Origin: a virus
Direction: 5' to 3' (one strand)
IMG/VR virus record: IMGVR_UViG_3300035698_012504
Coordinates: 122,694-186,693 of that record
Length of the DNA: 64,000 bases
The stretch's first letter is position 1. Every line of letters begins with the position of its first letter. Positions 1-51,769 of this stretch are shown here, piece after piece. The notes under the pieces were generated by a model that saw nothing but the letters and a program-made list of their open reading frames with translations, was not told the origin of the DNA and did not search any database. Both the position numbers and the translations under genes were made by a program.

Positions 1-569
1 TTAATTTTGACGATATAATAATAAATGGATGTTCAACGAGACCAACTAAAAAACAAATAATTATTTATGATAGAATATTGTCAGAAAATATGATGTTAAA
101 CCACAATAGATATTCTTTTGAAAAAAGAATAGGTAATGATATCATTAATTATTCAGATGAAATACTTTCAAAAATATTATGTGGAATTATTGACGGAGAT
201 GGTTCTTTTATCCCAGAAAAAAGTAGAACATATATTTCTATGGAATTAACATCTGTTAAATTAATTCAAGAAATTCATCATATTTTAAATAAATTTAATA
301 TTAATCATAATGTAACATTATCTACTGTTAAACCTCTTACTAGACATCAATCATATACTATGAAAATATATCCATCAATAGAAGATAAAGATATATTTAA
401 ATATAGTTATAAAATTGATTTAGAAATACTTCCTAAAAAGAATGAAAGAAAAAAATATGATTCTCTTATTAATTATTATAAAGATGTTTTTTGGGACAAT
501 AATGAATATGTATATGATTTAACAACAGAAACTGGGACACTATCAATTAATGGAATATTTTCACATAAT
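1..569 (+). mobile_element. LAGLIDADG-type intein (C-terminal portion; N-terminal splice junction lies upstream of the window)
   Basis: LAGLIDADG motif ILCGIIDGDGSFI. C-terminal splicing block VYDLTTETGTLSINGIFSHN followed by Thr at the +1 position. Inserted immediately before the TGG(L/V) motif of the RNAP trigger-loop region. Confidence 0.65.
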
Positions 570-1322
570 ACTGGTGGTGTATCTGAGCTGAAACGATATG
601 ATATAATTGAAGCAGTTATGAAAAACGTAGAAGAGGTGTTACGAGATAAAGTAACATCAAGATTAAAGCAAGTTGATAATACACTGATAGCAAAAGACGA
701 ATTTGTTAGACTTAGAATTCCGAGAAAGATATATAGAGATGAATATAGAATAGATATAGATGAGGAATATATTACTTTACCAAATGGATACTTCGATTTA
801 GTTATGGGAGATATTACAACTCCTGTTACAATCGAACAGGAGGTTAAGATATACCTTAAAGAAGGAGAGATGAGTAAGGATGAAGAATACATAGAAATAA
901 TCTTTCCTCCAGACTCCAAGTTAGTTGAAGTAGAACTCCAACAACAAGACCCAACTAAATTGGTTCAGAAAATGGATCAGATGGTTGGAGGAAAATCTCC
1001 ATGGACTACCCCAGTATCTCTCTTCATGAAGTTCTATGACATCTTAGGTCCAACTGGGTCATGGGATTCAGTACACTTAGAAGTAATTATATCTAATATA
1101 TTAAGAGCAAAAAAGGATCCGAAACAACCCGCTAGATTAAAGGTACCATTCGATCCAATTACATTCCCAATCAAAACTTTACCTTATGTAATTTCATGGC
1201 CGTTGGGGTTGGCCTTCGAAAATTTCGGAAAAGGGATCAGATATGGTTTAATATCTGACAGAGCGCCATCATCTAACATTGAAAAAGTATTGTTTGGTGA
1301 ACCATTAGTAGAAGAAAAATAA
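1..1322 (+). CDS. RNA polymerase beta-prime subunit, C-terminal fragment (5'-partial; intein plus trigger-loop/region G-H extein)
   Basis: Frame open from nt 3. After the intein end (..SHN/T at nt 569/570) the extein reads TGGVSELKRYDIIEA, resembling beta-prime DITGGLPRVAELFEAR. Later VHLEVIISNILRAKKD resembles region H RHIEVIVRQMLRK, and ISWPLGLAFENFGKGIRYG resembles SFISAASFQETTRVLTEAA. Stops at 1322. Confidence 0.6.
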   Translation, partial: NFDDIIINGCSTRPTKKQIIIYDRILSENMMLNHNRYSFEKRIGNDIINYSDEILSKILCGIIDGDGSFIPEKSRTYISMELTSVKLIQEIHHILNKFNINHNVTLSTVKPLTRHQSYTMKIYPSIEDKDIFKYSYKIDLEILPKKNERKKYDSLINYYKDVFWDNNEYVYDLTTETGTLSINGIFSHNTGGVSELKRYDIIEAVMKNVEEVLRDKVTSRLKQVDNTLIAKDEFVRLRIPRKIYRDEYRIDIDEEYITLPNGYFDLVMGDITTPVTIEQEVKIYLKEGEMSKDEEYIEIIFPPDSKLVEVELQQQDPTKLVQKMDQMVGGKSPWTTPVSLFMKFYDILGPTGSWDSVHLEVIISNILRAKKDPKQPARLKVPFDPITFPIKTLPYVISWPLGLAFENFGKGIRYGLISDRAPSSNIEKVLFGEPLVEEK

Positions 1323-1333
1323 AGAGAATCATA

Positions 1334-3079
1334 ATGTTTAGATGTGAAATATGTGATAGAGAATTTAAAGGAATAAGATCGTTAGGTGTCCACATTAAAA
1401 GAATACATATGATTGAAACATCTGAATATTATTTAAAATATATTAATTTTAATAATAAATGTAAAATTTGTTCTAAAGAAACCAATTTTATAAATCTATC
1501 TAAAGGATTTAGAAAATATTGTAGTGGGTCTTGTAGAAATAAAGATCCTTATTATCAAAATAAGATTAAAGATACTAATTTAAAAAAATATGGTTCGGTT
1601 TCCCATTTTAATAATAATAAAATTCGTGATAAAATAAAGAAAACAAACTTAAAAAGATATGGGGATGATAACGCATTTAAAAATAAAGAGATTCGTGAAA
1701 GACAGAAAAAAACCCTCATAGAAACCTATGGTGTGGACCATCAATCAAAAATACATTCTGTTAAAAAAATATTAAGTAAAAAATCCAAAGAAAATTATCC
1801 AAATTATATAGATCAGATTAAACAAACAAATTTAGAAAGATATGGAACAGAATATGCGATTGCTTCAGATGAATTAAAAGAAAAGATAAAAAAATCCAAT
1901 CTAAAAAAATATGGGGTAGATAATGTGTTCAAACTCAAATTTTTCCAAGATAAATCAAGAAAAACAATAAAAGAAAAATATGGTGTAGATCATATATCTC
2001 AAAGTGAAATAAGAAAGAAAACAATTTTTACGAATTACTACACCAAACTTTTAACAGCTGAAAAATTTACTTCGAAAATTCTTCCCCTTTTTAATTTAAA
2101 AGATTATGATGGTACTAATAATAAATATTCATGGAAATGTAATAAATGTGATAATGAATTTGAAGATCATTTAAACAATGGACATATACCTAGATGTAAA
2201 AAGTGTTATCCAATTTGGTCAGGATCCTCAAAACTTGAAAAAGAAGTTAGAGAATTTATTGAAACACTTAGCATTAATTTCACCTCTAATACTAGAAAAA
2301 TTATTTTTCCTTTTGAATTAGATGTTTATATTCCAGAAAAAAATATAGCTATAGAATTTAATGGATTATATTGGCATAGTGAATTAAATGGGAAAAATAA
2401 GAATTATCATCTAGATAAAAATTTGAAGTGTAAAGAAAAAGGAATTCAATTAATTCATATATTTGAAGATGAATGGATTAATAAACAAGAAATAGTTAAA
2501 TCTATTATTAAAAATAAATTGGGATTGACTGAGACAAAAATATACGCTAGAAAATGTTTAATAAAAAATATTAATAATAAAGAAGCAACTGATTTTTTGA
2601 ATGATAATCATGTACAGGGAAGAATAAATGGAAAACATGTTGGTCTATATTTTAAAGACGAGTTGGTATCCATTCTTACAATTGGAAAAACTAGATTTAA
2701 TAAAAAATACGAATATGAAATATTAAGATTTTGTAATAAAATTAATACGAATACTATCGGTGGGTTTAGTAAGTTGCTAAAATATGTTATTAAAAATCAT
2801 TCTATATGTTCTTTAATTACATATGCAGATATACGTTATAGTGATGGAAAGTTATATAACTCTTCCGGTTTTAATCAATTAAATAAATCTACACCAAACT
2901 ATTTTTACTTAGATAAAAACTATAATTCTAGATTGAGTAGAATTCAATTTCAAAAACATAAATTAAAAAATTTATTAGAATCATTTGATCCTAAGTTAAC
3001 TGAGTGGCAGAATATGCAACTCAATGGGTATGATCGTATTTGGGACTGTGGGAATTTAGTATATGAATATAACTTTTAA
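1334..3079 (+). CDS. free-standing homing-endonuclease-like protein (N-terminal C2H2-like zinc finger, tandem KYG(V/S)xN repeats, DUF559/Vsr-like PD-(D/E)XK nuclease domain)
   Basis: N-terminal CEICDREFKGIRSLGVHIKRIH. At least six repeats of the form NLK(K/R)YG..N....KI...I.K. Nuclease-like FPFELDVYIPEKNIAIEFNGLYWHSE...KNLKCKEKGIQLIHIFEDEW. Sits in the 12-22 nt gaps between the RNAP beta-prime C fragment and beta genes. Confidence 0.55.
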   Translation: MFRCEICDREFKGIRSLGVHIKRIHMIETSEYYLKYINFNNKCKICSKETNFINLSKGFRKYCSGSCRNKDPYYQNKIKDTNLKKYGSVSHFNNNKIRDKIKKTNLKRYGDDNAFKNKEIRERQKKTLIETYGVDHQSKIHSVKKILSKKSKENYPNYIDQIKQTNLERYGTEYAIASDELKEKIKKSNLKKYGVDNVFKLKFFQDKSRKTIKEKYGVDHISQSEIRKKTIFTNYYTKLLTAEKFTSKILPLFNLKDYDGTNNKYSWKCNKCDNEFEDHLNNGHIPRCKKCYPIWSGSSKLEKEVREFIETLSINFTSNTRKIIFPFELDVYIPEKNIAIEFNGLYWHSELNGKNKNYHLDKNLKCKEKGIQLIHIFEDEWINKQEIVKSIIKNKLGLTETKIYARKCLIKNINNKEATDFLNDNHVQGRINGKHVGLYFKDELVSILTIGKTRFNKKYEYEILRFCNKINTNTIGGFSKLLKYVIKNHSICSLITYADIRYSDGKLYNSSGFNQLNKSTPNYFYLDKNYNSRLSRIQFQKHKLKNLLESFDPKLTEWQNMQLNGYDRIWDCGNLVYEYNF

Positions 3080-3100
3080 CAATAAAAGGAAGGTTAATTA

Positions 3101-6100
3101 ATGCAATATGCCAGTATAAAACCATTCAAACCGGTTACGAGTATTATAATTCCGCCGAAGGGAATTAAAGGAAAAAATGTATGCTTAGCAGTTTTTCCAG
3201 AGAACGATTTGTTCTTTGACTTCTATAGATTAATGGGAATAAAACCTGCGTTTGTTAAGCACGTTCATGTTCCTATAGTTCAGAAGCCGGTTCGAATTAG
3301 GTTGACTCCTACATACAAAAAAATAATCAAGTCTCATAAGTTGTTCCCATCACAAGGGCACTTCGGAGATTATACAAAAGTATCAGACAAAAACTTTTAT
3401 CTTGATATGAGTATGTATATAGCAGCTCTACAAGCGAAGTTTAAAATTACTAGATATAACTCTGGAAGAGCATACGTATCAATTCAAAAATTAATATCTG
3501 CTTTAGATAGTGTACCTGCAGAATCACACGAAAGAGTTATATTATATGCTGTCAATATAGATAAACCAATACCTAAGAAACTTTTAAGCAGAAGGATATA
3601 TCCTGTATGGGCCATGCTGTTTCAATACATTAGTGGCCGAACAGAATCTCTCCCATTCGATAAACTATTACTATTTATATATGGACAAGACGAAAAAAGA
3701 TTTGTATTATTGTATGATAAAGATAAGAAAGTAAATCTAGCTAGAATTAAAAGCTATCTTAAGAAACTTAAATCACTAGATAAAGATGATGAAGAAGCTG
3801 TCGAATCTGAGATCACCTCACAAAAAACTGTAGAAAATCTAAACTCTACCACAACACTTACAAATGTAGAGAAAGACAACGTTCAGAAAACAGTAGATGA
3901 ATACCTAGAAGTTGATCCGTCTGCCAAAGAAGAACCTATTGGGAATATAGTAGCTGCTGCGATTGCATATAAGGTAACAGGTAGTATTGAAAAAGCAAAA
4001 TCTATTTCTAAAAAGGCAACATCAACTGATAAAGAAAAAATAATACAAAACTATGCTAAAGATCTTATACCAAAACAAAAAGCCTATCCACAGATTAGAT
4101 CTGCTATGGTTAAGATGGCAAGTCCAGCAGATATAATAGATAATCAAGTTCCTACTCACCTCCTTGAGAAAAGAAAGAGAGACTTTGCTGAGAATTTAGT
4201 TGAGGATTTAACTGATGCATTCAAGGTCTTAGAAAATAAAGATATGCCTCTGAAGGTTAAAGATATAGAAGTTAAAACTATGAAGTCTCCTCCCAGTGAT
4301 CTAACCCCTACAATCAAGGATAGATATACCGTGACTATGACTGATGATAAAGGAGTAGACCAGACTGTATATATGGATCTCCCTCACCTTACAGAGAACG
4401 GAACGTTTATGATATATGGTCAGGAGAATGTATTAATCAATCAGATTATACCTTATCCTATATTCTTTCTAAAACCATACCTTGGTAGGTTTGAATCATC
4501 TTACTCTACTGTAGCAATATATAGCAAGAGACTTAAAAGAACTTCTTATTTAATGATTCATATAGGTAACTATAAAATTCCATTGACTATGTTCATGGCA
4601 TATAAATATGGATTAAAACAATGTCTAAATCTATTTGGAATGAAATATACTCTTACTGATAAAAAAGATGGAGAGAATTCTCTAAAGTTACATGATGGAA
4701 CATTCATTAATTTTACATTCGAAGATGATATACTTGGACCAGAGGTAATTGAATCATTTAGATTTGCTCTTCCTAGTATTCCAGAAGGAGAAGATATAGA
4801 ATCTTCTGAGACATGGCAACACGGACTGGAATCATATACAGATAATAGAAACTGTGTTGATACTATGGATCAGATATGGGCAAATATTGTGACCCCTATA
4901 GAGATTAAAATTCTTAAATCAAAAGGGGATCCTACTAATATAAGAGACATAATTATATTCATAGCTAAGGAAGTTGTTCGTGGTCGAGTAGATGATAGAA
5001 ATGGTTGTGATAAACTCAGAATAAGATCGTCTGAATTGTTTGTGGCATTAGCACAGAAGCAGGTACTGATGGCATACAATGAGTATATGAGTAAGAGAGC
5101 GGGTGGAGATACAACTGCTACTCTATATATAAATCCTACGTCTGTGTTCACTGATGTTATAACCTCTCAGAACGTTGCTATATTAGAAAATATAAATCCC
5201 GTTGAAGAGTTATCAACAATGACAAGAATATCCCCTGTTGGTATTGGTGGTGTTCCTAAGTCGGAAGCATTTCCAAGACAGGCTATGAACGTCCACCCAA
5301 CATACTTCGGATGTATAGATCCTTTAGATACACCAAACGGGCCAGGGGTTGGATTCCAGCAGCATCTGACAGTCGGTGCGACAATAAGTAATGTCAGAGG
5401 TCAGATGATTGTTAAGGATAGAAAGAATGTTAAAGCCACGGAAATATTAAGTGTCAGTCCAGCGTTAATACCATTTGTAGAATCGAATGAAGGTGCTAGA
5501 GTTACTATGGCTGCCGGTCAGCAGAAACAGGCAGTGCCTATTAAATTCCCAGAGAACCCTGCGGTTCAAACAGGATACGAAGCATGTCTCACCCCACTTC
5601 TATCAGATAGCTTTATTAAGAAGAGCCCAGTGGACGGAGAGATTGTAGATATAAAGGATGGATTTATTTTAGTACTTGATAAAAGTGGAAAGACTCATGT
5701 AGTTGGTACTCGTCCAGCTAACCTTAAGAGTGGTGGCGGTCAGGATGGGCTAAGTGTATTTCATCCAACTGTTAAACTAAAACAGAAGGTTAAAGAAGGA
5801 ACTATCATAGCAGAAGGGGCCAATGTTAAGGACGGATTAATATCTAATGGTGTTAATATGTTGACTGGAATGATGCCATGGAAAGGATATAATTTTGAGG
5901 ATGGTATGGTGATAAGTGAGTCAGCAGCGGCGAAATTCATATCTGTTCACGCAGAACATAACGAAGCACTCGTCACCCCAGAAGAAGATATATCATTCAT
6001 ACAAAGCATCGGAAACACAATTAGAAAAGGAGACATCCTCCTGACATATTCAACAGCAATATATGATGTACAGGCAAACAAACATATACGAGCAGAGAAC

Positions 6101-7144
6101 GGACGTGTAACAGACATAGAAGTATATTCTAATGTACCTGAAGATGCTATACCAGAAAAGCTATTACCAGCATATGAACGATTTAGAGATCAATATAAAA
6201 CATTGCATGGTAAATATCCTATAGGACACTTCAGAGAGAAGGGTGAGAAGTTTGAAGGGATTAAAGTAAAATTTATTATTGCACAAGAGCTTAGTATATT
6301 TAAAGGAGATAAACTTAATAATCGTCACTTCAACAAGGGAGTTGTTGCTATCATTGAGAAGGATGAAAATATGCCTGAGACTCCTTGGGGTGATAAATTG
6401 GAGATGTTATATAATCCATTAAGTATTTTAAATAGAATGATTACTGGTCAGTTATTAGAAATGGCAACTGGATTAGTAGCTAAAAGAATTGCAGATCTAA
6501 TGGAAGAACTACCAAGAAAGAGATTCGAAGTAATATATCATAAGATACTTGTACTAATGGATGGAACTAAAGGAAAGACATATAGTAAACGGGTACATCA
6601 AAAGATGTCAGCATTATCTGATCCAGCATATGAAACAATTAGAAAACAAGTTATAAAGAATGGATTCGTTCCAATTATATGTGCTCCATTTAAGAGTCCA
6701 GATAGAAAAGCAATTGAGGTAGCTCTGAAGTTAGTTGGTAGATCGGCTAGAACTAAATTAAAGATAGCTCATTTAGGTGTGACAACAGAACCAGTAGCAG
6801 TAGGATATGTTTATGTTAACAAGCTTGAGCATATGTCAGAGAAGAAGATCCACTCCAGAGGAACAGGCGGATATAATTCAATAACATTTCAACCAACTGC
6901 AGGTAAAAGGAAAGGTGGTGGTCAGAAGTTAGGTGAGTATGATATGTATTCTTTATTAGGATGGAATTGTCCCACTCTAATTGATGAGTTCTTTGGACCA
7001 CTTAGTGCCGATCATGCTACAAAGAACCAGATGGTATCTGAAATACATCAAACTGGATCTACAGAATTTAAGACTCCTGTTCATAATCCAGTTAAAGATC
7101 TATTCTCTCAGATGATGACAGCCATACACTTGGAGTCTGAATAA
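3101..7144 (+). CDS. multisubunit RNA polymerase beta subunit (full length, set 1)
   Basis: LPHLTENGTFMIYGQENVLINQIIPYPIFF (beta region D: GTFxINGxERV). GQQKQAVPI. FKGDKLNNRHFNKGVVAIIEKDENMP (GDKxxxRHGNKGV). HSRGTGGYNSITFQPTAGKRKGGGQKLGEYDMYSLLGW (GGQRFGEMEVWALEAYG). Confidence 0.9.
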   Translation: MQYASIKPFKPVTSIIIPPKGIKGKNVCLAVFPENDLFFDFYRLMGIKPAFVKHVHVPIVQKPVRIRLTPTYKKIIKSHKLFPSQGHFGDYTKVSDKNFYLDMSMYIAALQAKFKITRYNSGRAYVSIQKLISALDSVPAESHERVILYAVNIDKPIPKKLLSRRIYPVWAMLFQYISGRTESLPFDKLLLFIYGQDEKRFVLLYDKDKKVNLARIKSYLKKLKSLDKDDEEAVESEITSQKTVENLNSTTTLTNVEKDNVQKTVDEYLEVDPSAKEEPIGNIVAAAIAYKVTGSIEKAKSISKKATSTDKEKIIQNYAKDLIPKQKAYPQIRSAMVKMASPADIIDNQVPTHLLEKRKRDFAENLVEDLTDAFKVLENKDMPLKVKDIEVKTMKSPPSDLTPTIKDRYTVTMTDDKGVDQTVYMDLPHLTENGTFMIYGQENVLINQIIPYPIFFLKPYLGRFESSYSTVAIYSKRLKRTSYLMIHIGNYKIPLTMFMAYKYGLKQCLNLFGMKYTLTDKKDGENSLKLHDGTFINFTFEDDILGPEVIESFRFALPSIPEGEDIESSETWQHGLESYTDNRNCVDTMDQIWANIVTPIEIKILKSKGDPTNIRDIIIFIAKEVVRGRVDDRNGCDKLRIRSSELFVALAQKQVLMAYNEYMSKRAGGDTTATLYINPTSVFTDVITSQNVAILENINPVEELSTMTRISPVGIGGVPKSEAFPRQAMNVHPTYFGCIDPLDTPNGPGVGFQQHLTVGATISNVRGQMIVKDRKNVKATEILSVSPALIPFVESNEGARVTMAAGQQKQAVPIKFPENPAVQTGYEACLTPLLSDSFIKKSPVDGEIVDIKDGFILVLDKSGKTHVVGTRPANLKSGGGQDGLSVFHPTVKLKQKVKEGTIIAEGANVKDGLISNGVNMLTGMMPWKGYNFEDGMVISESAAAKFISVHAEHNEALVTPEEDISFIQSIGNTIRKGDILLTYSTAIYDVQANKHIRAENGRVTDIEVYSNVPEDAIPEKLLPAYERFRDQYKTLHGKYPIGHFREKGEKFEGIKVKFIIAQELSIFKGDKLNNRHFNKGVVAIIEKDENMPETPWGDKLEMLYNPLSILNRMITGQLLEMATGLVAKRIADLMEELPRKRFEVIYHKILVLMDGTKGKTYSKRVHQKMSALSDPAYETIRKQVIKNGFVPIICAPFKSPDRKAIEVALKLVGRSARTKLKIAHLGVTTEPVAVGYVYVNKLEHMSEKKIHSRGTGGYNSITFQPTAGKRKGGGQKLGEYDMYSLLGWNCPTLIDEFFGPLSADHATKNQMVSEIHQTGSTEFKTPVHNPVKDLFSQMMTAIHLESE

Positions 7145-8097
7145 TGAATAAACTAGAATTTTTGGAGGAGGCTATGTTCGGAGTTGGTAAGAAGAATGCT
7201 CCTACATTTATATATACTATATTAAATGGTAAACCACCGTACCCTCCTCTTGTAGGACAAACATCAGATCATAGACAAAAAATTTGGAATAGAATCGCAG
7301 TTGATTTTAACATTCCAGATAAGGCTCTTAATAATTTATTAAAAATAAAAGAAATAGAGATGAGAGCATCATGCGAAGGCCACTCAGAAGAGAGACCAAC
7401 ATTTCTTATTATAAGATTAAAGGATCAAAGAGAAGAATATATTAAAACATTTGTAGAAGCGTTAAATAAAGAAAAAGATATCGTAGCAGGATATGGTCTT
7501 GGAAATAAAGGATTCTATAGAGTCGGAATTACTATTGAGATATGGCATGATAAAGATCCTATTAGATTTAAAAAATGGTGGTTAGCATTACCAAAGAAAA
7601 TAAATAATGCATTTAAGTCTTCATATGTATCAGAGAGCTGTTACATTCAAGAAGTATCATCTAATCCTCTACAAGGAGTTGTAGGCCCATTCAGTGTAGG
7701 AACACACCAACTAACCGGTCTTCAGATGTGGACGCTTGGGAGCATGTTTAAGCCCTTCAGAAAGAACGTAGGTGATGCTGCCTGGTTGATCATAGCTAAA
7801 CCAAAAAATATTGAGAAGGTAGGTGGAGAATCTAAAATAAAAGTATTCTTTGGAAAGGTATTATTTGGAGACGCTCATAAAATTTATAGAAATATAAAGG
7901 AGTGGGAGACTGGAACGGCACTATATGGTATATGGGATACTACTAAAACAAAACGCCAAGGTGGGTTTGTTAAGAAGATAGAAGGTATAGATTCTATACA
8001 TACAAAGGCAGAATTTATAATTGAATTTGACTCCGGATTATTAAATAGTCCAGCGATTTCATCCCACATTAGTGGGAAGATAAGGAGAAATAAATAA
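7144..8097 (+). CDS. hypothetical protein (possibly an RNAP-associated subunit by position)
   Basis: 317-aa ORF starting at the stop of the beta gene (ATGA overlap). No recognisable motif. Confidence 0.4.
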   Translation: MNKLEFLEEAMFGVGKKNAPTFIYTILNGKPPYPPLVGQTSDHRQKIWNRIAVDFNIPDKALNNLLKIKEIEMRASCEGHSEERPTFLIIRLKDQREEYIKTFVEALNKEKDIVAGYGLGNKGFYRVGITIEIWHDKDPIRFKKWWLALPKKINNAFKSSYVSESCYIQEVSSNPLQGVVGPFSVGTHQLTGLQMWTLGSMFKPFRKNVGDAAWLIIAKPKNIEKVGGESKIKVFFGKVLFGDAHKIYRNIKEWETGTALYGIWDTTKTKRQGGFVKKIEGIDSIHTKAEFIIEFDSGLLNSPAISSHISGKIRRNK

Positions 8098-8646
8098 ATG
8101 GATTTAACAGATGATAAAACATTGGGAAGACTTTATCTTGATAAGGATGAACCTAGTATAACCCAAGAACAGATAAATGAACGACTGCTATATTTCCATT
8201 CTCAAAATGTGTTATTGGATGCTGCAAAACATCCGATGTCTAAATATGATATAGAATTTAATTATGATATTTTGGAGATAGATGATCAGGAATTTTGGAC
8301 ACATCTAATGGTGGAGTTAGCTAAGATTTATTCTTTGAATAATCTTAAAATGTTTTTGTCTCCATCGTTTACAATTTCAGAAATTCCTAACTCAGAAAAA
8401 CCGGAATCAATTAATTTGCCGGTCAATATTAAGAGGCTTTTTAAATGCCTAAAAGTTGATGTTCCAGACGCTATGAATGAGGGAAAAATTAGCAGCATAA
8501 CTACTCGTCAGGAGCTAGAAGAACTTACTATAAAAGAGGGATATTGCAGGCTGTTTTCATGGTCAATTTATAACTTAGATAAGGAGAATTACGTCAAGTT
8601 TTTACGTGAAATTTTACGTCAAAAAGACCTTGACTTTCCTGACTAA
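8098..8646 (+). CDS. hypothetical protein
   Basis: 182-aa ORF immediately following the previous gene (TAAATG junction). No motif recognised. Confidence 0.4.
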   Translation: MDLTDDKTLGRLYLDKDEPSITQEQINERLLYFHSQNVLLDAAKHPMSKYDIEFNYDILEIDDQEFWTHLMVELAKIYSLNNLKMFLSPSFTISEIPNSEKPESINLPVNIKRLFKCLKVDVPDAMNEGKISSITTRQELEELTIKEGYCRLFSWSIYNLDKENYVKFLREILRQKDLDFPD

Positions 8647-11093: not shown

Positions 11094-12878
11094 ATGGATA
11101 AATACGATACATCATCAATAGAATTAGTTGATGCTATTACACACATTCGAAAACACACAAGTCTTTATTTAGGCGATACATCAAATGCTACTCAATTATT
11201 AATTGAAATGCTTGATAACTCATTGGATGAAGTAGCCGCTGGTGGTGCCAAAAGAATAAAAATAGAAATAGGAGATGATTATTTTTCTGTTGAAGATGAT
11301 GGAAGAGGTATACCATTCGATGGGAAACTTCCATTAGATAAAGATCCTCCTATTTTGATAACGCATGAAATAAATACTAGTGGTAAGTTTAGAAAGAATG
11401 AAAACGGATCTTCATATAAAATATCAGTTGGTCTTCACGGAATTGGATTGACTGCTGTATCAGCATTAAGTAATAAAATGTTAATAGATATTTATAGAGA
11501 TAATAAGCATGGATTATATACAATACTCCATGATGGCACGGCAGAGAGAAAGATATCTAGAGGTAATAAGAAACCACCCTACTCTACTAAGATGGTGTGT
11601 TATCCTAATCCAATATACTTCGACGACATTAGTGTAAATATGGATCAGATAATTGGTAGATTATCAATTGCATCTGCTAGATTTCCACGGCTTAAGTTAT
11701 ATATTAATGATGATAAAATTTCATGTACTGAAGAAGATTTATTTAAAACTTATCTTGGGGAAGCTCCTGAGTATTATAATACATATGTAGAGAAAAAACA
11801 TGAGTCTTGCACATTAACATTTGCCTGGGCGGAATGTGACTCTCCTAAACAAACTATATTCACTACAGTAAACTTGGCACCAGTATTATCTGGTCCACAT
11901 ATTACAAAAATAAATAACTTTATTAAAGCAGCATTTGAAAAACTAAAAAAGAAATATAACTATTCATTTGAACCATCTGATTGCTTAAATTGGTCTAGAA
12001 TATATATTAATTTAATGGTGGTGAAGAACCACTTTGATAGTCAAACAAAAGAAAGGCTATCTAAGAAATCAGATCTATCTATAATGGATGGATTGGAAAA
12101 ACAAATAGAAGTTACTATAAAGGCTATGGGTGAAGAAGAGTTAAAGAATTTACTCATACGATTTCAAGACTATAGAAAAGCAATTCAATCTAAAAAATTA
12201 ACTAAGACTCATGGAAAGAAAAGAGGGTCATCTAGGTCTACTAAGTTGCAGGACTGTACTTCTAATAATGGGGAACTAATTATTGGAGAAGGAGCTTCTG
12301 CAATTGGTGGGTTGGCACAAGTTAGAGATGAAGTAAAACATGCTGTGCTAGCTCTAAGAGGAGTCATACCTAATATATTAACTAAAAAGGATGCTCTTGA
12401 TAATCAAGAAGTAAAAGAAATAATAAGAGCGCTAGGTTGTGGGATTGGATCATCATGTGACATTTCCAAACTAAGATACGGTAAAGTTATCATTGCAGCT
12501 GATGCAGATCCAGCAGGGTATTTTATCACAGCTCTACTAATAATTCTATTTGCATCATTAGTCCCTGATTTAATAAAGGAGAATAAACTTTTCATCTGTA
12601 AGACTCCATTGTTTGGAATCAAAAAGAAAGGTAAGTTTGTTCCTCTTTGGACAAATAAAGATCTAGAAAAAGCAAGAAAAAATAAAGAATCGATAATCCG
12701 AATAAAAGGACTAGGTGAATTTGATCCAGATGATCTTAAAGTATTTACTCTTGATGAATCTACTAGGATATTAATCCCTGTAACTTGGTCTAAGAATTAC
12801 AAGGCCATTTTTAAATTGATGAGTGATGCTAAGGAACGTAGGAAACTAGTTCTTAATACGTGGAAAATTGAAGACTAA
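11094..12878 (+). CDS. type II DNA topoisomerase, ATPase plus Toprim subunit (GyrB/ParE-like; T4 gp39-like)
   Basis: GHKL/Bergerat motifs LDNSLDE, GDDYFSVEDDGRGIPFD, GLHGIGLTAVSALS. Toprim motifs IIGEGASAIGG and IIAADADPAGYFI. Confidence 0.85.
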   Translation: MDKYDTSSIELVDAITHIRKHTSLYLGDTSNATQLLIEMLDNSLDEVAAGGAKRIKIEIGDDYFSVEDDGRGIPFDGKLPLDKDPPILITHEINTSGKFRKNENGSSYKISVGLHGIGLTAVSALSNKMLIDIYRDNKHGLYTILHDGTAERKISRGNKKPPYSTKMVCYPNPIYFDDISVNMDQIIGRLSIASARFPRLKLYINDDKISCTEEDLFKTYLGEAPEYYNTYVEKKHESCTLTFAWAECDSPKQTIFTTVNLAPVLSGPHITKINNFIKAAFEKLKKKYNYSFEPSDCLNWSRIYINLMVVKNHFDSQTKERLSKKSDLSIMDGLEKQIEVTIKAMGEEELKNLLIRFQDYRKAIQSKKLTKTHGKKRGSSRSTKLQDCTSNNGELIIGEGASAIGGLAQVRDEVKHAVLALRGVIPNILTKKDALDNQEVKEIIRALGCGIGSSCDISKLRYGKVIIAADADPAGYFITALLIILFASLVPDLIKENKLFICKTPLFGIKKKGKFVPLWTNKDLEKARKNKESIIRIKGLGEFDPDDLKVFTLDESTRILIPVTWSKNYKAIFKLMSDAKERRKLVLNTWKIED

Positions 12879-12933
12879 GTTGAGAAGGGTCAAGTAGTGA
12901 TCTCATTTCTTGACGTTACATAAGGATAAATGA

Positions 12934-14265
12934 ATGGAGAAACTTGTACCCTGGTTGTATAGAGAATATGGTGAGTATGTAAATAAGAAAAAAATGCTAC
13001 CGTTAATGGTAGATGGATTACTACCAGTACAAAGAAGAGTATTATTAAGTCTTCATATGATGGCGAAAACAAGCTATGTAAAAACTGCTGAGGTACTGGG
13101 ACATACAATGGGTCACTTCCATCCTCATGCAGCAGCAGAAGGAACCGCAACATACCTGGTTCAAAACGAATTCTGTTTAGGATCTGGACAATGGGGAACT
13201 ACATTTGGAATAAACAAGATAGACCCAGCAGCTATGAGATACACAAAGATGAAGGCCAGTCCATTCATTGAGGATATGGCATTCAAATTTGTTAATAATA
13301 TCAAATGGGCAGAAGACGAACTGAAACCTGAACCCATTTTTTTACCAACGATGATTCCAATATGTTTGTTTGCTAAAAGTGATTTAGTATCTATAGCATT
13401 TGGATTTAAATGTAGAATCCCTGCATATAATCTCAAAGATCTGATAAGAAGATTACTATACCTAGAAGGTAGAAGAAAAACTAAACCAACAATTTCACCA
13501 ACTATAATGGGATGTGAGATACTATCTACTAAAAAAGAATTGGAAGAGTTGCTAACGACTGGAACAGGATCCATTAGTGTTAGAGGGATATATGAAGTCA
13601 GTAAGAAAAACTATTCTATCATTGTACGCGGATGGGGACCAGGAACTAGGTTCGAAGCGATACTATCTAGAATTGAAAAGTTAATGCTTGCCGCAGGTAT
13701 CTCAAGAGATGATTGGATTCATAGAGACTCATCTAATAAAAACAATGGAACTAAGGTTGTATTCGAAATAGATAAAACTAGAAACCGTGATCCCGCGTTT
13801 AAAGCTTTAGTTAAATCTATGAAGATTGCTCTCGAAGACAGGATTAAATATGATGTGATTGTTGTTAACTTGAAAGGAGAGTTGGCTCGACCATCTATAG
13901 ATGAAATGCTATCTAATACATTTAAGCATTGGAAATTTGCATTCAATAATAATACAGAAGAAAGAATAACTAATACTATAGTATTGATAAATGAAATGAT
14001 GTTAATAAAAAAGATTAGACCTTATATATCAATGGCCTCCAAAGAACCTACTGTCGATGGAATGATAACAAGGCTATCTACAAAATCTGGAGTATCCGAA
14101 GAGGATGTAAAGATAGTTGTAGATAAATATAAAATTAAAAAGATACTTACAGTTGATACAGACACCAAGGAATACAAAGATAAAATTAAGCGTCTAAAAG
14201 CAGTGTTATCTAACATAGATAAGCTTTCACTGGACACGTACGAAGAACTTCTAGCTTCTAAATAG
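12934..14265 (+). CDS. type II DNA topoisomerase DNA-cleavage subunit (GyrA/ParC N-terminal domain-like)
   Basis: LPVQRRVLLSL (GyrA LKPVHRRVL) and the catalytic-tyrosine motif AAMRYTKMK (AAMRYTE). Confidence 0.75.
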   Translation: MEKLVPWLYREYGEYVNKKKMLPLMVDGLLPVQRRVLLSLHMMAKTSYVKTAEVLGHTMGHFHPHAAAEGTATYLVQNEFCLGSGQWGTTFGINKIDPAAMRYTKMKASPFIEDMAFKFVNNIKWAEDELKPEPIFLPTMIPICLFAKSDLVSIAFGFKCRIPAYNLKDLIRRLLYLEGRRKTKPTISPTIMGCEILSTKKELEELLTTGTGSISVRGIYEVSKKNYSIIVRGWGPGTRFEAILSRIEKLMLAAGISRDDWIHRDSSNKNNGTKVVFEIDKTRNRDPAFKALVKSMKIALEDRIKYDVIVVNLKGELARPSIDEMLSNTFKHWKFAFNNNTEERITNTIVLINEMMLIKKIRPYISMASKEPTVDGMITRLSTKSGVSEEDVKIVVDKYKIKKILTVDTDTKEYKDKIKRLKAVLSNIDKLSLDTYEELLASK

Positions 14266-14601: not shown

Positions 14602-14925
14602 ATGTCAGAAAATAAAAAACCATTTGAAATTGAAACGCCCGGCGAACTTCTACGAGCTATTCTATTTGTTCTTGGCAGTATAGTTTTTAGTGGTGTATTG
14701 GTGTTACTTGCTTGTAAAATAATTATAGATATAGTTATAGCATTATCATATACTTCATTAGTAGGAATAATAATAGGATCATTTATAATTGCAACAGCCT
14801 CAGTAATTGGAAGTCCAATACAAGAAGAGATGATTAAATACTATGAAGAAAAAAATAAGAAATATTTAGAAGAAAAAAAGAAAAAAGAAGATGACAAAGA
14901 TGTTCAAACTAACAGTAAGAGTTAA
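14602..14925 (+). CDS. small membrane protein
   Basis: Two long hydrophobic segments (ILFVLGSIVFSGVLVLLACKII... and LVGIIIGSFIIATASVIG) followed by a Lys/Glu-rich tail. Confidence 0.4.
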   Translation: MSENKKPFEIETPGELLRAILFVLGSIVFSGVLVLLACKIIIDIVIALSYTSLVGIIIGSFIIATASVIGSPIQEEMIKYYEEKNKKYLEEKKKKEDDKDVQTNSKS

Positions 14926-15328
14926 CTTCTCAGCAGCACATAGATTAAAATATAGTAAAAGTGACTGTGCGTTTTTACATGGCCACAATTATAAACTATT
15001 AGTATACTATGAAGGAGATCTATCTCCAACAAGTGGAATGGTAGAAGACTTCAAAGAAATAGAATCAAATATTGCAGGATATGTATTAGAGAAGTTCGAT
15101 CATTCTATAATAATAAGTTCACATGACACTGAAATGTTAGATGTTATTGGCGAGATTTCACCTAAGAAAATAGCACTAGTAGATGGAGAACCTACTGCAG
15201 AAGTAATAGTTAACGACATTGCAAAACATATAAGATTTCTTGCACTAGAGTCAGACTTCTATAAAGGTTACAGCGAATTAGAATTATGGGAAACAGATAA
15301 ATACTGCGTCTCATTAAAATTATATTAG
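14891..15328 (+). CDS. queD: 6-carboxy-5,6,7,8-tetrahydropterin synthase QueD (PTPS family)
   Basis: KLTVRVNFSAAHRL...CAFLHGHNY...GMVEDFKEIE are the PTPS/QueD zinc-site and catalytic motifs. The true start may be ATG 14900. Confidence 0.8.
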   Translation: MTKMFKLTVRVNFSAAHRLKYSKSDCAFLHGHNYKLLVYYEGDLSPTSGMVEDFKEIESNIAGYVLEKFDHSIIISSHDTEMLDVIGEISPKKIALVDGEPTAEVIVNDIAKHIRFLALESDFYKGYSELELWETDKYCVSLKLY

Positions 15329-15336: not shown

Positions 15337-17832
15337 ATGTTAATACGAAAGTCAGGTATCATCCTTCCGAAAGATGACCCTCAGTTAGAGTTGATAAAAT
15401 CAGACCTCACTAGGAAAGTCTTTCAGTGGGATGGATCATGGAAAACTATGACCTTTTACGAGGACATGTCAGACTACATAGTTATCCCTAGATTCTACCC
15501 TGCTCTTGGAAAAATAAGAGATGATAGAACTGACGGAGATGATATAGAAATAGAATCAAAAATAAAACCTTTGAATTCTAGACAAGAGAAGGTGATGAAC
15601 TTTCTTGAGAAAACAGAGAATTGTATACTTAGACTCGAACCTGGGAGTGGGAAAGCTCAACCAATTTATTCTAAAATATTGACACCTATTGGTTGGAAAA
15701 ACCTTCAAGATATTCAAATCGGGGATAATGTAATTGATCCAGTATCTGGAAGAAATGTAAAGGTATTAGGTGTTTTTCCTCAAGGTAAAAAAGAAGTATA
15801 TAAATTAACTTTTAATGATGGAGCCACAACGTTTTGTTGTAATGATCATTTATGGAAAGTAAAATATAAAAGATCATGTATTGGTGAAAAAGAATATTGG
15901 AAGATTAAACCATTAAATGATTTAAAAAATGATTATTATATAGATAAACAAAAAAGACTTAAATATTTTATCCCAATTACATCTCCTATTGAATTTGAAA
16001 ATCAAGAAATAAAAATAGACCCTTATCTTTTAGGTTGTTTGCTTGGAGATGGAACAATTAGATTTGGTGGTGGAACTATATCGTTATCTTCCAGGGATAA
16101 AGAATTGATAGAAACTTGTTCGGTGTTATTAGATAAATATAATCTTGAGTTCAAAAAAGATAACAAATATGACTACAGAATAAGAATTAAAAATAATAAG
16201 TTTAGAAAAAAATTTAGAAAAAAAGGAAAATATTTAAATCCTTTAAAAATATATTTGGATGAATTGGGTCTTCTGGGTAAAAAATCATATGAAAAATTTA
16301 TACCAAATACATATAAATTTAATTCTATGTATAATCGAATTAGTATTCTACAAGGACTCTTGGATACCGATGGATATGTTTCAGATAAAAAACAAGAAGT
16401 TAGTTTTTCATCTACATCTTATACGTTATGTAAAGATGTTAAATTTATAGTTGATAGTCTTGGTGGAAAATCCAAAATATATCCAAAACAAACATATTAT
16501 ACATATAAAAATATTAAGAAAAAAGGAAGACCTTCCTGGGTAGTAAATATAACTTTAGATAAAAATATAATTCCATTTAGATTATCTCGAAAAGTTAAAA
16601 GATATAATAATATTCATAAATATCCTCCTTCGAGAGCAATAAAAGATATTAAATATATTGGAAAAGAAGAATGTCAATGTATAAAAGTTGATTCAGATGA
16701 TGGATTATACATAACTGATGATTTTATAGTAACACATAATACTGTTACAGCAATAGAAACTATATGTAGATTAAAGAAACGAACTATTATATTTGCTCAT
16801 AAAACAGAACTATTAGATCAATGGAGAGGTGAATTTCTTAAACATACTAATCTAACAGAAGATGATATTCAGAAGGTTAATACAGACGATAAGAAGTTTG
16901 ATGGCTGTCTGAAAAAGAAAATCATTTTATGTACACCCCATACTATATCTGTAGCTATTAGATTAAATAAAAAAGATTTCATACGCGCATTATTAAAAGC
17001 AGGCATAGGTATTTGTTTTATAGACGAATGCCATGTTGGAATAGGTCCAGAGGAATTCTCCAAGAGTTCAATTTATATAAACGCCAAACGAATATATGGA
17101 TTATCTGCTACACCATTTAGACCAGATGGAAATGATGACATAATAAGATATCACCTCGGAGAGGTAAAGTATTTTCCTCCGGAGAAAGATGAACTAATAA
17201 ACCCCAAAGTTCTTATGGTACATATGCCGTTCCATGTATTTGAAACATATAATATGAAACAAAATTTAATGTGGGGAGGACGATTTCAGAATGCTAGATA
17301 CTGGAATCTATTGGCGAAGCAACCTAAGTATATTCATAATGTTGCGTCGATTATAAAGAGAGCATACACAGAGGGAAGAAATATATTAGTACTTGGCAAT
17401 AGAGTTCAGGGTCTAATGAACATGGCCGAGGCATGTAATATTCATAAAAAAGACATCGGTATATTTATGAGCACTGCCACCAGTGAACATAAGAAAAGAG
17501 TTCTAGAACTTTCAGATACTACAGATCTTAAAGAAGCATTCTATAAAAAGCGAGTTGTGTTTTCTACATATGGTATGGCTAGGGATGGAAACAACAGAAA
17601 AGATTTAGACTTTCTTGTATTATGTATACCGACTGGCAACATAGAACAAGCAGTGGGTAGAGTTCAGAGAGAACTCAAGGGGAAACGTAGACCAATAGTA
17701 ATAGATTTAGTAGATACCCAAAGTCCTAAGAATAAATCTGGAAATTATATATTTGAATACCAGGCACAGAGAAGGAAAGAATTCTATGCTAAGATGGGTT
17801 GGAAAGTTGAGACGATATTTTTTAAAGAATAA
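15337..17832 (+). CDS. SF2 (DExH) DNA/RNA helicase interrupted by an intein in the Walker A motif
   Basis: The extein reads ...LEPGSGK|TVTAIE... (Walker A GSGKT once the intein is removed). CFIDECH (motif II), LSATP (motif III), QAVGRVQR (motif VI). Confidence 0.8.
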   Translation: MLIRKSGIILPKDDPQLELIKSDLTRKVFQWDGSWKTMTFYEDMSDYIVIPRFYPALGKIRDDRTDGDDIEIESKIKPLNSRQEKVMNFLEKTENCILRLEPGSGKAQPIYSKILTPIGWKNLQDIQIGDNVIDPVSGRNVKVLGVFPQGKKEVYKLTFNDGATTFCCNDHLWKVKYKRSCIGEKEYWKIKPLNDLKNDYYIDKQKRLKYFIPITSPIEFENQEIKIDPYLLGCLLGDGTIRFGGGTISLSSRDKELIETCSVLLDKYNLEFKKDNKYDYRIRIKNNKFRKKFRKKGKYLNPLKIYLDELGLLGKKSYEKFIPNTYKFNSMYNRISILQGLLDTDGYVSDKKQEVSFSSTSYTLCKDVKFIVDSLGGKSKIYPKQTYYTYKNIKKKGRPSWVVNITLDKNIIPFRLSRKVKRYNNIHKYPPSRAIKDIKYIGKEECQCIKVDSDDGLYITDDFIVTHNTVTAIETICRLKKRTIIFAHKTELLDQWRGEFLKHTNLTEDDIQKVNTDDKKFDGCLKKKIILCTPHTISVAIRLNKKDFIRALLKAGIGICFIDECHVGIGPEEFSKSSIYINAKRIYGLSATPFRPDGNDDIIRYHLGEVKYFPPEKDELINPKVLMVHMPFHVFETYNMKQNLMWGGRFQNARYWNLLAKQPKYIHNVASIIKRAYTEGRNILVLGNRVQGLMNMAEACNIHKKDIGIFMSTATSEHKKRVLELSDTTDLKEAFYKKRVVFSTYGMARDGNNRKDLDFLVLCIPTGNIEQAVGRVQRELKGKRRPIVIDLVDTQSPKNKSGNYIFEYQAQRRKEFYAKMGWKVETIFFKE
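15655..16740 (+). mobile_element. LAGLIDADG intein (362 aa) apparently beginning with Ala rather than Cys/Ser
   Basis: Block A AQPIYSKILTPIGWKNLQDIQIGDNV. Two LAGLIDADG motifs, LLGCLLGDGTIRFGGG and ISILQGLLDTDGYVSD. C-terminal DDFIVTHN followed by +1 Thr (TVTAIE). Removal recreates GSGKT. Confidence 0.7.
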
Positions 17833-19460: not shown

Positions 19461-19620
19461 ACCCCTAGATACTTTAGATCTTAATGATGCATCATCAGAT
19501 GAATTAATTAATGTATTACAGGAGCATGAGGAAGTATTAGAATCTATTGAGAGTAATGAACCTAACGAGGAAGTCAAACTAGAGTTGTTTGACGGTGGAG
19601 AAATCAGAAAGGACGGCTGA
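19396..19620 (+). CDS. hypothetical acidic protein
   Basis: 74-aa ORF in a different frame overlapping the previous ORF by 65 nt. Its end abuts the start of the next gene. Confidence 0.3.
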   Translation: MPTWINLKNSKRKSKSKKSAAEPLDTLDLNDASSDELINVLQEHEEVLESIESNEPNEEVKLELFDGGEIRKDG

Positions 19621-34246: not shown

Positions 34247-35485
34247 TTGAAAGGAAAATTTATGCCATCAAGTGGATACAGAGTATCAGTCATGAAATAT
34301 TTCACTGATGCTCAGTGTGAAATTACAGCGTATCTGGATAATTGTAACTTCGAAAAAAAGAAATGGTTAGGTAAATTATTTGAAGGTCTTCCGACAATTA
34401 TATCATTAAGTGGGAAACATATATATTCAGTCAAGACAAATATTAATGTAAATCACGAAACATTTAGAAGATTGATAGAGAACTTCTCAATGAAAAAACT
34501 CAATCAATCATTTCTAGTTAATGACTTTAACAATGCATTTGCGTTATTTTGTTATGGTGCTGATGATATAATCTTTGCTTACATATCTACTAGTGGTAAA
34601 ATATTCTTTATCGATGTGGCATGTCAACACTTTTATGATGTGTTAGGTAAAGATGAATTCGAAACAGTAATAGCAGACATATTTGAATTTAGAGAACAGG
34701 CAGTACTAAGATATGATAAGTCAAAAATAGAAAAAGGGGAAGCAGATGGTACATTAAGATCAGATACTGCAGACTCCATTGCGCACAAGTTAGCAGTATC
34801 ATTACCAACTGATAGAAAAATAACGGAGGAGATGATCACGCGTGTTATCGATGAGTCGGTATCAGCTCTAGTCGATCCCGAAAGCAGTAGCCCAATGTCT
34901 CATAGAATACTACTTGCTAGAAATGAATTCTATCGTTTAGCAATTAAAGATTATCTACTTAGTAATGATAAGTTAAAGTCACAGGCATTTAACGATGGAT
35001 TCAATGTTGGCCTTACTTTTGTAAACGTTTTACGTAAAGTAGGATATGAAGTTGAGGGAGAGTATTTTGTAAAACATCCGAAGTGGGTACCATCTAAGTG
35101 TTGCCACGATGGTACAATATATATTCTTCCAGCGGAACATCCATACACTATAAAGAAATTAATGATACCTGTTAATTGTGTAAAACCTGGTAGACATATT
35201 CAATTCTTGGCAGTTGGTAATCATCCAAATGTCAACGGTGGTAAAACAACGCCCGGCGGAGTATGCCTAGGTAGCTATCATCCAAAAGAACTCACCATTG
35301 GATCAGGTGGGAAATTTAATGAACAACAGTTTATGGATGCATTGATAGGAGCAGAGACTACTATTAAAATGATTAACTTTGATTCTTCATATAAACAATT
35401 GTCGTCATCCCTTAGCTTCAGTGAAATGGATAAAGAATCTCTGAGTTATGACAAGACTAAGAAGAAAAAGATAAGGAAAATATAA
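34247..35485 (+). CDS. E2 (UBC-fold)-like ubiquitin-conjugating-enzyme homolog with an N-terminal domain of unknown function
   Basis: C-terminal GTIYILPAEHPYTIKKLMIPVNCVKPGRHIQFLAVGNHPNVNGGKTTPGGVCLGSY resembles the UBC core (PxxYPfkPPkvxFxTxIyHPNIxxxGxICLDIL). Its stop overlaps the start of the E1-like gene (ATAATG). Confidence 0.55.
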   Translation: MKGKFMPSSGYRVSVMKYFTDAQCEITAYLDNCNFEKKKWLGKLFEGLPTIISLSGKHIYSVKTNINVNHETFRRLIENFSMKKLNQSFLVNDFNNAFALFCYGADDIIFAYISTSGKIFFIDVACQHFYDVLGKDEFETVIADIFEFREQAVLRYDKSKIEKGEADGTLRSDTADSIAHKLAVSLPTDRKITEEMITRVIDESVSALVDPESSSPMSHRILLARNEFYRLAIKDYLLSNDKLKSQAFNDGFNVGLTFVNVLRKVGYEVEGEYFVKHPKWVPSKCCHDGTIYILPAEHPYTIKKLMIPVNCVKPGRHIQFLAVGNHPNVNGGKTTPGGVCLGSYHPKELTIGSGGKFNEQQFMDALIGAETTIKMINFDSSYKQLSSSLSFSEMDKESLSYDKTKKKKIRKI

Positions 35486-51454: not shown

Positions 51455-51769
51455 ATGGCTGATGAAACTAGTTTTGATGATGGTAAATTAAAAGTACTTA
51501 AAGAATTTAGAGTTCCCGATCCGTGGGATGGAGCAGAATCAGGAGCACTGATAAGAGTATATACCTACGACGGAAGTAAACCAAAAGTAAATATACTACG
51601 ATACTATAAAAAATCCAAAGGGTTTGATGAAGGTGATAACACCGAAGTCGTATCGAATAAAGGTAATCTCCCAATGGAGAATGTACAGAAGGTTGGAGAA
51701 CTCCTTGTCAGTATAGGCAAGGAACTAAATAGGGTAGACACCCAAGAGGTACCAAATGGCATCAGGTAG
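51455..51769 (+). CDS. hypothetical protein
   Basis: 104-aa ORF. Confidence 0.35.
   Translation: MADETSFDDGKLKVLKEFRVPDPWDGAESGALIRVYTYDGSKPKVNILRYYKKSKGFDEGDNTEVVSNKGNLPMENVQKVGELLVSIGKELNRVDTQEVPNGIR

Follow-up and report, generated by a model that had tools for sequence, protein, structure and literature searches.

The split, σ-less RNA polymerases (RNAPs) of jumbo phages have been explained by acquisition from cyanobacteria, by intron-driven splitting, or as relics from before the last universal common ancestor (LUCA) that were later fused (PMC7598289, PMC7824862), and in phiKZ/AR9-type enzymes the β′ subunit is cut after its DPBB domain (PMC7598289). The mReC phages are Caudovirales that encode unsplit β and β′ (Weinheimer & Aylward 2020, PMC7481178). 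Fractured genes, made of a split intein plus a free-standing endonuclease gene, were described for eight enzyme types, RNA polymerase not among them (Dassa et al. 2009, PMC2677866), and some natural inteins are atypically split with a very short N-terminal piece (IntN), an example being PolB16 OarG, with 15 amino acids (aa) of IntN and 168 aa of C-terminal piece (IntC) (PMC10189870). Here we analyse a 64,000-nucleotide stretch of viral DNA (IMG/VR record IMGVR_UViG_3300035698_012504, positions 122,694 to 186,693; the whole 64-kb stretch is called the window below) that carries two multisubunit RNAP (msRNAP) gene sets. We consider it probable that it derives from an uncultured, AT-rich large phage in which set 2 is an unsplit enzyme of non-virion (nv) type, and set 1 an enzyme of virion (v) type with an unsplit β and a β′ gene interrupted by an intein.

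Set 1 begins at the left edge of the window, where an earlier note on this DNA had placed a separate β′ C fragment (1-1322). Part of that assignment stands: the last 251 codons and the stop codon (567-1322, plus strand, +), starting TGGVSELK, are the C-terminal-most part of β′, as judged by identity to the homologue P0031 and by phrog_2926. The first 189 codons (1-566, frame from base 3, +) are instead the C-terminal part of a LAGLIDADG-type intein that ends in ...NEYVYDLTTETGTLSINGIFSHN. LAGLIDADG_3 (PF14528) is the sole Pfam match of the frame running from base 3 to 1322, its E of 1.5e-5 passing the family cut-off, and the LAGLIDADG motif of the window intein reads KILCGIIDGDGSF, which gives the translation the order ...KILCGIIDGDGSF...NEYVYDLTTETGTLSINGIFSHN|TGGVSELK.... 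The insertion site is the trigger loop of the set-1 β′, FH|TGG, and the splice junction, ...GIFSHN|TGG, carries the canonical C-terminal His-Asn with Thr at position +1. Base composition changes at the same point, GC content being 34.9% in the C-extein versus 21.6% in the intein, with the drop exactly at the junction.

Homologues agree with this division. The C-extein is 45% identical to residues 470-721 of P0031, an intein-free β′ of 731 aa, and a hidden Markov model (HMM) of the C-extein family matches the C-terminus of the set-2 β′ (E 5e-13). Over all of its 189 aa the window intein shares 52-57% identity with the C-terminal halves of inteins of ~400 aa in five proteins (P0171, P0183, P0165, P0182 and P0163), where they occupy the identical trigger-loop site of β′, after SFH and before TGG; P0031, P0019 and other relatives have intein-free alleles. 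Judging from these sequence features, what had been taken for a separate fragment is the tail of an intein-interrupted gene. In the literature searched we found no RNAP site of this kind (bacterial-type β′ trigger loop, FH|TGG) hosting an intein.

Since this frame stays open as far as the edge of the window, the start of the set-1 β′ gene lies further upstream. The first residue of the window aligns with residue 462 of the 913-aa P0171 and, by analogy with the closest homologues, the open reading frame (ORF) at 1-1322 probably extends some 460 codons upstream. Exact-match scans of JGI metagenome contigs with 32-36-mers from the intein and C-extein, seeking DNA upstream of base 1, returned nothing; the contigs matched in look-ups of window proteins end at window position 979 or 2222, and a protein search with the partial ORF gave no identical full-length protein.

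Relatives provide the anatomy of complete set-1 loci. Those on contigs of 236, 307 and 335 kb carry both RNAP sets, which in the 236-kb and 307-kb relatives lie on the same contig. Their set-1 operon consists of β′-N (~305 aa), 0-4 small ORFs, β′-rest (~725 aa) and β (1340-1368 aa), the β′ being cut near residue 368 of the set-2 numbering, ~50 residues before DFDGD (~85 in the relatives' own sequence). The N piece is fused to the middle part in one IMG/VR relative (L022), and more distant members of the set-1 β′ family are single ORFs of ~1000 aa. In the 335-kb relative (L006, 9080-12196) β′-N and β′-rest stand in the same reading frame, parted only by a single TAA followed by ATG.

A full HMMER search of 1.84 billion representatives with the C-extein returned 171 family members, of which 168 were classified by the state of the trigger loop. 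The loop is uninterrupted in 64 of these 168 family representatives. An intein at what we call site a, ending ...[HS]N before SFH, is present in 35, and 26 of these ORFs start as an intein C-half of ~240 aa. Site b, the window's own, holds an intein ending ...HN before TGG in 16 (the homologues' site-b inteins begin SFH|C... or SFH|S...); 13 of the 16 also carry a site-a element, with the SFH tripeptide between the two inteins, and 11 of those 13 ORFs start as IntC. A further 18 are stand-alone, Met-initiated C pieces of 219-246 aa that start ~24 residues after the site.

Two relatives show a fractured β′ directly. The upstream gene ends ...AEKIMK|CGVGLINKNKKLISMDDIWEEKDKL in L011, a 25-aa IntN, and ...EKIMK|CSTGLVNTEKHGIISLDELWDQN in L015 (IntN lengths at the two loci are 23-25 aa); downstream of it, both loci have a DUF7487 endonuclease gene and, next, an ORF composed of IntC (~240 aa), ...HN|SFHTGG and the C-extein. 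The same intein is contiguous in L016 and P0161. At L025 7001-9742 a gene of the form IntC(a)-SFH-intein(b)-β′ C-extein lies among RNA-ligase and small ORFs, with no other RNAP gene within 7 kb upstream or ~4 kb downstream, and its product would be a trans-spliced β′ piece that was relocated in that genome. L022 has an intein-less split of β′, with a 333-aa ORF between the pieces. As for the phiKZ-type enzymes, the FH.GG motif is followed by ~13 more residues of the phiKZ gp80 profile, and the gp244 profile sets in near the same point, which puts this third phiKZ-type β′ break at most ~10 residues from the family's intein-less breaks and 15-25 residues from the intein sites. The proximity is suggestive of a common cause for the phiKZ gp80/gp244 break and the family's intein-less breaks, and is not proof of one.

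A second insertion hot spot was seen directly after the catalytic DFDGD of the set-1 β′ (L014 6277-6867, L016 4522-6000 and the N-terminus of P0161). The in-frame inserts there measure ~197 aa, or ~490 aa with LAGLIDADG motifs, and have non-canonical ends, starting T/S... and ending ...(I/L)(Q/Y)D|T. What appears to be the C-terminal piece of such an element stands at the start of P0161, and a split version may thus occur; phiKZ gp55, too, is interrupted at the same DFDGD motif, with the HNH gene gp56 adjoining.

Between the stop codon of the set-1 β′ and the set-1 β, the window carries a gene of low GC content (23.7%) for a homing endonuclease of 581 aa (1334-3079, +) with DUF7487 and a Vsr/PD-(D/E)xK-like REase_MTES_1575 domain (phrog_3339, E 1e-145; PF24308, E 9e-24). 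The protein is 42-49% identical to the products of endonuclease genes beside or inside the fractured β′ genes in L011. L006 and L008 have no endonuclease gene at this place, and there β′ and β abut. Another contig, L002, was considered as a case of polymorphism for the gene and rejected, being identical to the window and ending inside that gene. The set-1 β itself (3101-7144, +; 1347 aa; Pfam Rpb2_3 and Rpb2_6, E 2e-37) is unsplit and of virion-RNAP type, and its orthologues, 1340-1368 aa long, follow β′ in L006, L008, L011 and L022.

The set-2 β′ (42271-45069, +) is a full-length, unsplit protein of 932 aa, of non-virion/mReC type, with Pfam Rpb1 domains 1-5. It has the N-terminal Zn motif at its start, NADFDGD with DFDGD at aa 418, and RTFHISGVASS at aa 793-803, after which 129 conserved residues lead through the conserved C-terminal block; to call it an N fragment ending after RTFHIGG, as had been done, was wrong. 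The combined set-1 β′ pieces of relatives tile its residues 9 to 924, while residues 25-455 match phrog_2987 (the phiKZ gp55 family) and 603-828 match phrog_3015 (the gp74 family). Metagenomes contain more than 100 set-2 β′ homologues of 870-990 aa, every one a single ORF. The nearest cultured proteins are the unsplit enzymes of Rhizobium RHph_TM30/Y65, Vibrio Va2 and Yersinia YerA41/GN1 phages, at 26% identity over 84% of β′. Such an unsplit β′ counts against a phiKZ-type architecture, as the earlier note had itself allowed. The set-2 β (45681-48698, +; 1005 aa; Pfam Rpb2_3, Rpb2_6 and Rpb2_7, E 7e-51) is likewise unsplit and of non-virion type, and the Rpb2 domains confirm that the window holds two full β genes, as proposed.

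To which known enzyme each set corresponds was judged with PHROG profiles, whose identities were verified with SPN3US gp240/241/244 and phiKZ gp55/71/73/74/80 as reference proteins. On the v side phrog_2986 stands for SPN3US gp240 (N-β′), phrog_3148 for SPN3US gp241 (β), phrog_2962 for phiKZ gp80 (C-β′) and phrog_2926 for SPN3US gp244, a small virion protein that is the C-terminal-most part of β′ (PMC7598289); on the nv side phrog_2987 stands for phiKZ gp55 (N-β′), phrog_3015 for phiKZ gp74 (C-β′) and phrog_3295 for phiKZ gp71/73 (β). The set-1 β matches phrog_3148 (E 1.9e-46, co-linear over residues 483-1123) and the set-1 C-extein covers the whole phrog_2926 profile (E 1.3e-8). For the set-1 N piece of relatives phrog_2986 gives 5e-40 versus 5e-14 with phrog_2987, and for their set-1 middle part phrog_2962 gives 8e-26 versus 4.5e-19 with phrog_3015. 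The set-2 β′ goes the other way, with 1.4e-35 on phrog_2987 and 1.2e-30 on phrog_3015 versus 2.7e-22 and 4e-16 on the v-type profiles, and the set-2 β matches phrog_3295 (E 2e-51). Since set 1 prefers v-type and set 2 nv-type profiles, set 1 would be the virion-type and set 2 the non-virion-type RNAP, by homology at low identity. The proposal of a virion plus non-virion pair thus holds as far as profile affinities go and fails for the phiKZ split architecture, the set-2 β′ and both β being unsplit. The orthology of set 1 to SPN3US gp240/gp241/gp244 and phiKZ gp80 appears at the profile level only: a direct hmmsearch of the C-extein family HMM against SPN3US and phiKZ ORFs gave no match, and hhalign of the family against gp244 alone was co-linear and weak (E 0.08), which leaves the gp244 link to the PHROG profile.

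Several points weigh against our interpretation. The PHROG profiles cover different segments and the E-values just given are not strictly comparable; the v/nv assignment depends on relative profile scores at low identity, and direct phmmer and hmmsearch comparisons of the window with phiKZ and SPN3US proteins come out near or below significance. The N-terminal half of the intein and the N-extein lie outside the window and were not recovered. The sequences do show the gene content, the splice junction, the empty-site alleles, the profile-based assignment of the paralogues and the make-up of relatives' loci, whereas splicing, homing, packaging into virions and what lies upstream are our inferences. 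The upstream anatomy in particular admits another arrangement, to which we give even chances, in which the 1-1322 ORF is a separate gene that starts ~460 codons upstream with a long site-a IntC and continues with SFH, the complete site-b intein and the C-extein; the set-1 β′ gene would then be broken in its trigger loop, and trans- and cis-splicing would both be needed. In its favour, 13 of the 16 site-b representatives also have a site-a element and 11 of those 13 ORFs start as IntC, all five closest homologues of the window intein show the site-a plus site-b architecture, and L011 and L015 can be read directly as a 23-25-aa IntN, a DUF7487 gene and a ~240-aa IntC. However, contiguous versions exist (P0161, P0233 and L016), and in the window the DUF7487 gene stands after the β′ stop codon rather than between intein halves. 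The intein and the adjacent endonuclease gene, together with the small size of the family (171 cluster representatives in 1.84 billion proteins), could also be taken to mean that set 1, a paralogue in decay, has been overrun by selfish elements and that set 2 alone is functional. We regard this as very unlikely: all set-1 ORFs are intact and long, the C-extein and β are 45-54% identical to relatives, many lineages conserve the catalytic motifs, and the window intein retains its canonical C-terminal splice residues. Inteins, moreover, are characteristically found at essential, conserved sites.

The two other readings concern the phage as a whole. The earlier note took the two gene sets for the hallmark of a phiKZ-like, nucleus-forming phage. 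In that reading the phage encodes chimallin, and β′ is split in phiKZ style, with 42271-45069 as the N piece and 1-1322 as a stand-alone C piece. It can draw on the two msRNAP sets with v-type and nv-type affinities, on relatives' genomes of 230-335 kb and on homing endonucleases beside RNAP genes, as at phiKZ gp56 and gp72. We nevertheless think it improbable, as 42271-45069 encodes a complete β′, both β are unsplit and identity to phiKZ-like RNAPs is just 21-26%. No phiKZ-specific gene was detected in the window, which is only part of the genome: phmmer with the phiKZ chimallin gp54 against six-frame ORFs gave no match at E<0.01 (an insensitive, single-sequence search), PHROG and Pfam scans gave no chimallin candidate, and neither phmmer with phiKZ gp68 nor a scan of ~50 window ORFs against phrog_3209 (the gp68/AR9 gp226 family) found a match, although a gene for this fifth nvRNAP subunit may be present elsewhere in the genome or have diverged too far for detection. 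When 95 kb of phiKZ and SPN3US was compared with the window ORF by ORF, gp54 and gp68 included, the only matches were weak ones, to the set-2 β and the terminase. The Chimalliviridae feature of two msRNAPs is present, as two β and two β′ with v- and nv-type affinities, and is not diagnostic; because msRNAP phages without chimallin exist (PBS1, PALS_2 and phiR1-37; PMC10299810), two msRNAP sets are not a hallmark of nucleus formation. The claim that this phage forms a nucleus is left unsupported though not disproved. A cellular origin, with the genes being bacterial rpoB/rpoC or part of an assembly chimera, is barely credible. Pfam models of cellular RNAP domains do match the genes, but the proteins are far shorter than bacterial β/β′ and nearest to phage homologues, four public data sets yielded the identical sequence in independent assemblies, and T4-like terminase, phage-type topoisomerase II, SbcCD and homing endonuclease genes share one co-directional array with them. 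The presence of two msRNAP gene sets in a phage genome is borne out, by domain evidence far beyond chance, and the bacterial context that the earlier note had named as an objection is not what surrounds them.

The interpretation of set 1 as an intein-interrupted v-type enzyme suggests the following course of events. Inteins are protein-splicing elements after whose excision the host precursor is rebuilt, and homing spreads them. The set-1 β′ precursor would be translated with the intein inside its trigger loop and stay inactive until excision; protein splicing through the C-terminal His-Asn and Thr+1 would then join FH to TGG and restore the loop. The LAGLIDADG domain of the intein and the DUF7487/Vsr-like endonuclease would both be selfish, homing into intein-less or endonuclease-less genomes during co-infection. 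By homology, set 1 would enter with the virion and transcribe early genes, and set 2 would be made later. A second intein may well sit three residues away, in the order ...MK | intein a | SFH | intein b | TGG..., and intein a may be split; by analogy with the homologues, we give the presence of this element directly before the window about even odds.

Genes adjoining the two sets had been proposed as extra RNAP subunits. For 7144-8097 (+; 317 aa) and 45080-45697 this is not supported, both being absent from the relatives' syntenic loci. The 317-aa ORF is lineage-specific, with no Pfam or PHROG match and no homologue in the syntenic loci L006, L008 and L011. A better candidate for association with set 1 is the ORF directly after it (8098-8646, +; 182 aa; no Pfam or PHROG match), which blastp (E 1e-8 to 2e-15) pairs with the ORF following set-1 β in L006, L008 and L011. 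The interval 45080-45697 is not one ORF; an in-frame stop divides it into two lineage-specific ORFs between the set-2 β′ and β, of 71 aa (45080-45295, +) and of 131 aa (45302-45697, +), the latter a Zn-ribbon protein with a DnaJ-type CXXCXGXG repeat (PF00684, E 1.6e-4, below the family cut-off). Neither has a counterpart in L012 and L013, where β directly follows β′. The two share a frame; a stop codon and then two sense codons separate the first from the ATG of the second.

The conserved neighbours of set 2 are two other ORFs. One, of 241 aa (41565-42290, +; no Pfam or PHROG match), overlaps the start of the set-2 β′ by 20 nucleotides and matches in blastp (E 1e-14 to 4e-19) the ORF that immediately precedes β′ in L012 and in L013; it is a candidate accessory protein of set 2, and a word-indexed homologue search with it returned the query itself only. 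The other, of 240 aa (49440-50162), is the second of two ORFs of 248 aa and 240 aa downstream of the set-2 β (48689-50162, +) and shows ~50% identity in relatives; its single-sequence AlphaFold model (pLDDT 34) was unusable and was not used.

The window carries other genes of note. A superfamily 2 (ResIII/DEAD) helicase (15337-17832) bears a 362-aa LAGLIDADG intein (about 15655-16740) in its Walker A motif, PGSGK|AQPIY...FIVTHN|TVTA; the first residue of this intein is Ala, not Cys or Ser, and its GC content is ~25% versus 34-38% in the exteins. The gene at 19620-22253 encodes 877 aa in which a Hen1-like methyltransferase region is joined to a ligase domain of Pnkp type (PF16542, E 6e-59), apparently a single-gene RNA-repair module, and RtcB, T4 RNA ligase and 2'-phosphotransferase genes occur near the RNAP genes of the relatives L008 and L025. 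A QueD-like PTPS gene (14891-15328), a cluster at 35485-39307 with ThiF/E1-like, JAB-like (weak) and GATase+QueC-like genes, and a GTP cyclohydrolase I gene that in relatives directly follows the set-2 β together look like a 7-deazaguanine (DNA or RNA) modification pathway beside the RNAP genes. An ATPase gene (phrog_1297) and, after it, the gene for a DUF2201 metallopeptidase/VWA-like protein (51756-54472) form a pair kept downstream of set 2 in L012.

The window, scanned with the Pfam and PHROG libraries, represents 64 kb of a phage genome of at least 152 kb, and contigs of relatives reach 230-335 kb. It is AT-rich (~35% GC), with nearly every gene on the plus strand; the sole strand switch comes beyond ~60.3 kb, where the coding strand turns to minus (about 60300-63100). 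Topoisomerase II is encoded by two genes at 11094-14265, GyrB-like (594 aa) and ParC/GyrA-like (443 aa), and has the same synteny to the set-1 β in L011. The large terminase (57667-59415; Terminase_6N) is T4-type and finds its best matches in Flavobacterium and cyanobacterial myoviruses. Near-identical DNA was not found among GenBank phages, tblastn with the set-1 C-extein against GenBank phages gave no match, and peptide patterns from the set-1 β retrieved no close relatives from IMG/VR. Scans for transfer RNAs and Rfam families gave nothing, and no group I intron was found in or near the RNAP genes. Moraphages were considered as the lineage of this phage and rejected, as they carry no RNAP genes (PMC12619734).

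In the family the set-1 trigger loop is thus found intact, with one or two inteins, with a split intein and an endonuclease gene (one piece sometimes relocated), or split without an intein ~24 residues downstream. We tentatively propose that this clade keeps a little-fragmented v/nv RNAP pair and shows fragmentation in progress, in which case the split subunits of phiKZ-type enzymes could be products of fracture by mobile elements and not multi-piece relics from before LUCA. Insertions of inteins, split inteins and endonuclease genes at the places where genes break offer one concrete route to fission. A clade in which both paralogues are present, the nv one unsplit and the v one partly split, may help to root the phylogeny of either paralogue, much as an outgroup would, and biochemical work may profit from unsplit enzymes if these are easier to express. 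Natural inteins with an atypical split, of which a small set is in use for protein semisynthesis, would be joined by those of β′ (IntN 23-25 aa, with Cys1 or Ser1). In annotation, a phage should not be called nucleus-forming on account of two msRNAP sets, and what looks like a piece of an RNAP gene at the edge of a window may belong to a gene with an intein.

Compared with the described systems, the locus shares with phages of the phiKZ, SPN3US and AR9 type (PMC7598289; PMC7824862) a pair of paralogous enzymes of β/β′ type in a single phage, no α, ω or σ gene having been detected near the window's RNAP sets, and homing endonuclease genes beside catalytic motifs or RNAP genes (phiKZ gp56 and gp72). 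It differs in that every β and β′ of the phiKZ type is split, whereas both β and the set-2 β′ are single ORFs here, and the RNAPs are only ~21-26% identical. Instead of a cut after the DPBB (DFDGD), the set-2 β′ is one ORF across the gp55- and gp74-type profiles, and the set-1 β′ of relatives is cut before DFDGD, a different site; instead of a β in two (nv) or three (v) pieces there are single ORFs of 1347 and 1005 aa that run from Rpb2_3 through Rpb2_6/7.

Set 2 comes closer to the mReC phages: its β′ and β are unsplit, of ~900-1000 aa, adjacent and co-directional, they are recognised by cellular RNAP models in a Caudovirales genome with a T4-like terminase, and the best cultured matches of the β′ are phages of this kind (best-hit evidence, ~26% identity). 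The cultured mReC-type phages, however, gave one β′ locus in a tblastn search, whereas the present clade has a second, v-type set. The set-1 element resembles canonical LAGLIDADG inteins in its in-frame insertion at a conserved catalytic motif, its His-Asn followed by Thr+1, the existence of empty-site alleles and the compositional discontinuity, and differs in that its homologues have a second intein site only three residues away. With the fractured genes of Dassa et al., the β′ of L011 and L015 has in common an N-extein with a 23-25-aa IntN, a Vsr-like/DUF7487 endonuclease gene and a long IntC with the C-extein, and in the window the same endonuclease family adjoins the same gene; here, however, the endonuclease gene comes after the β′ stop codon and not between intein halves, and the visible intein is of the contiguous LAGLIDADG type. 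The L011 and L015 inteins share their very short IntN with the atypically split inteins, with an unusually long IntC (~240 aa). Next to these systems, the window holds a real two-RNAP phage locus that lacks phiKZ-type architecture and is notable for the traffic of inteins and endonucleases through the trigger loop of its set-1 β′.

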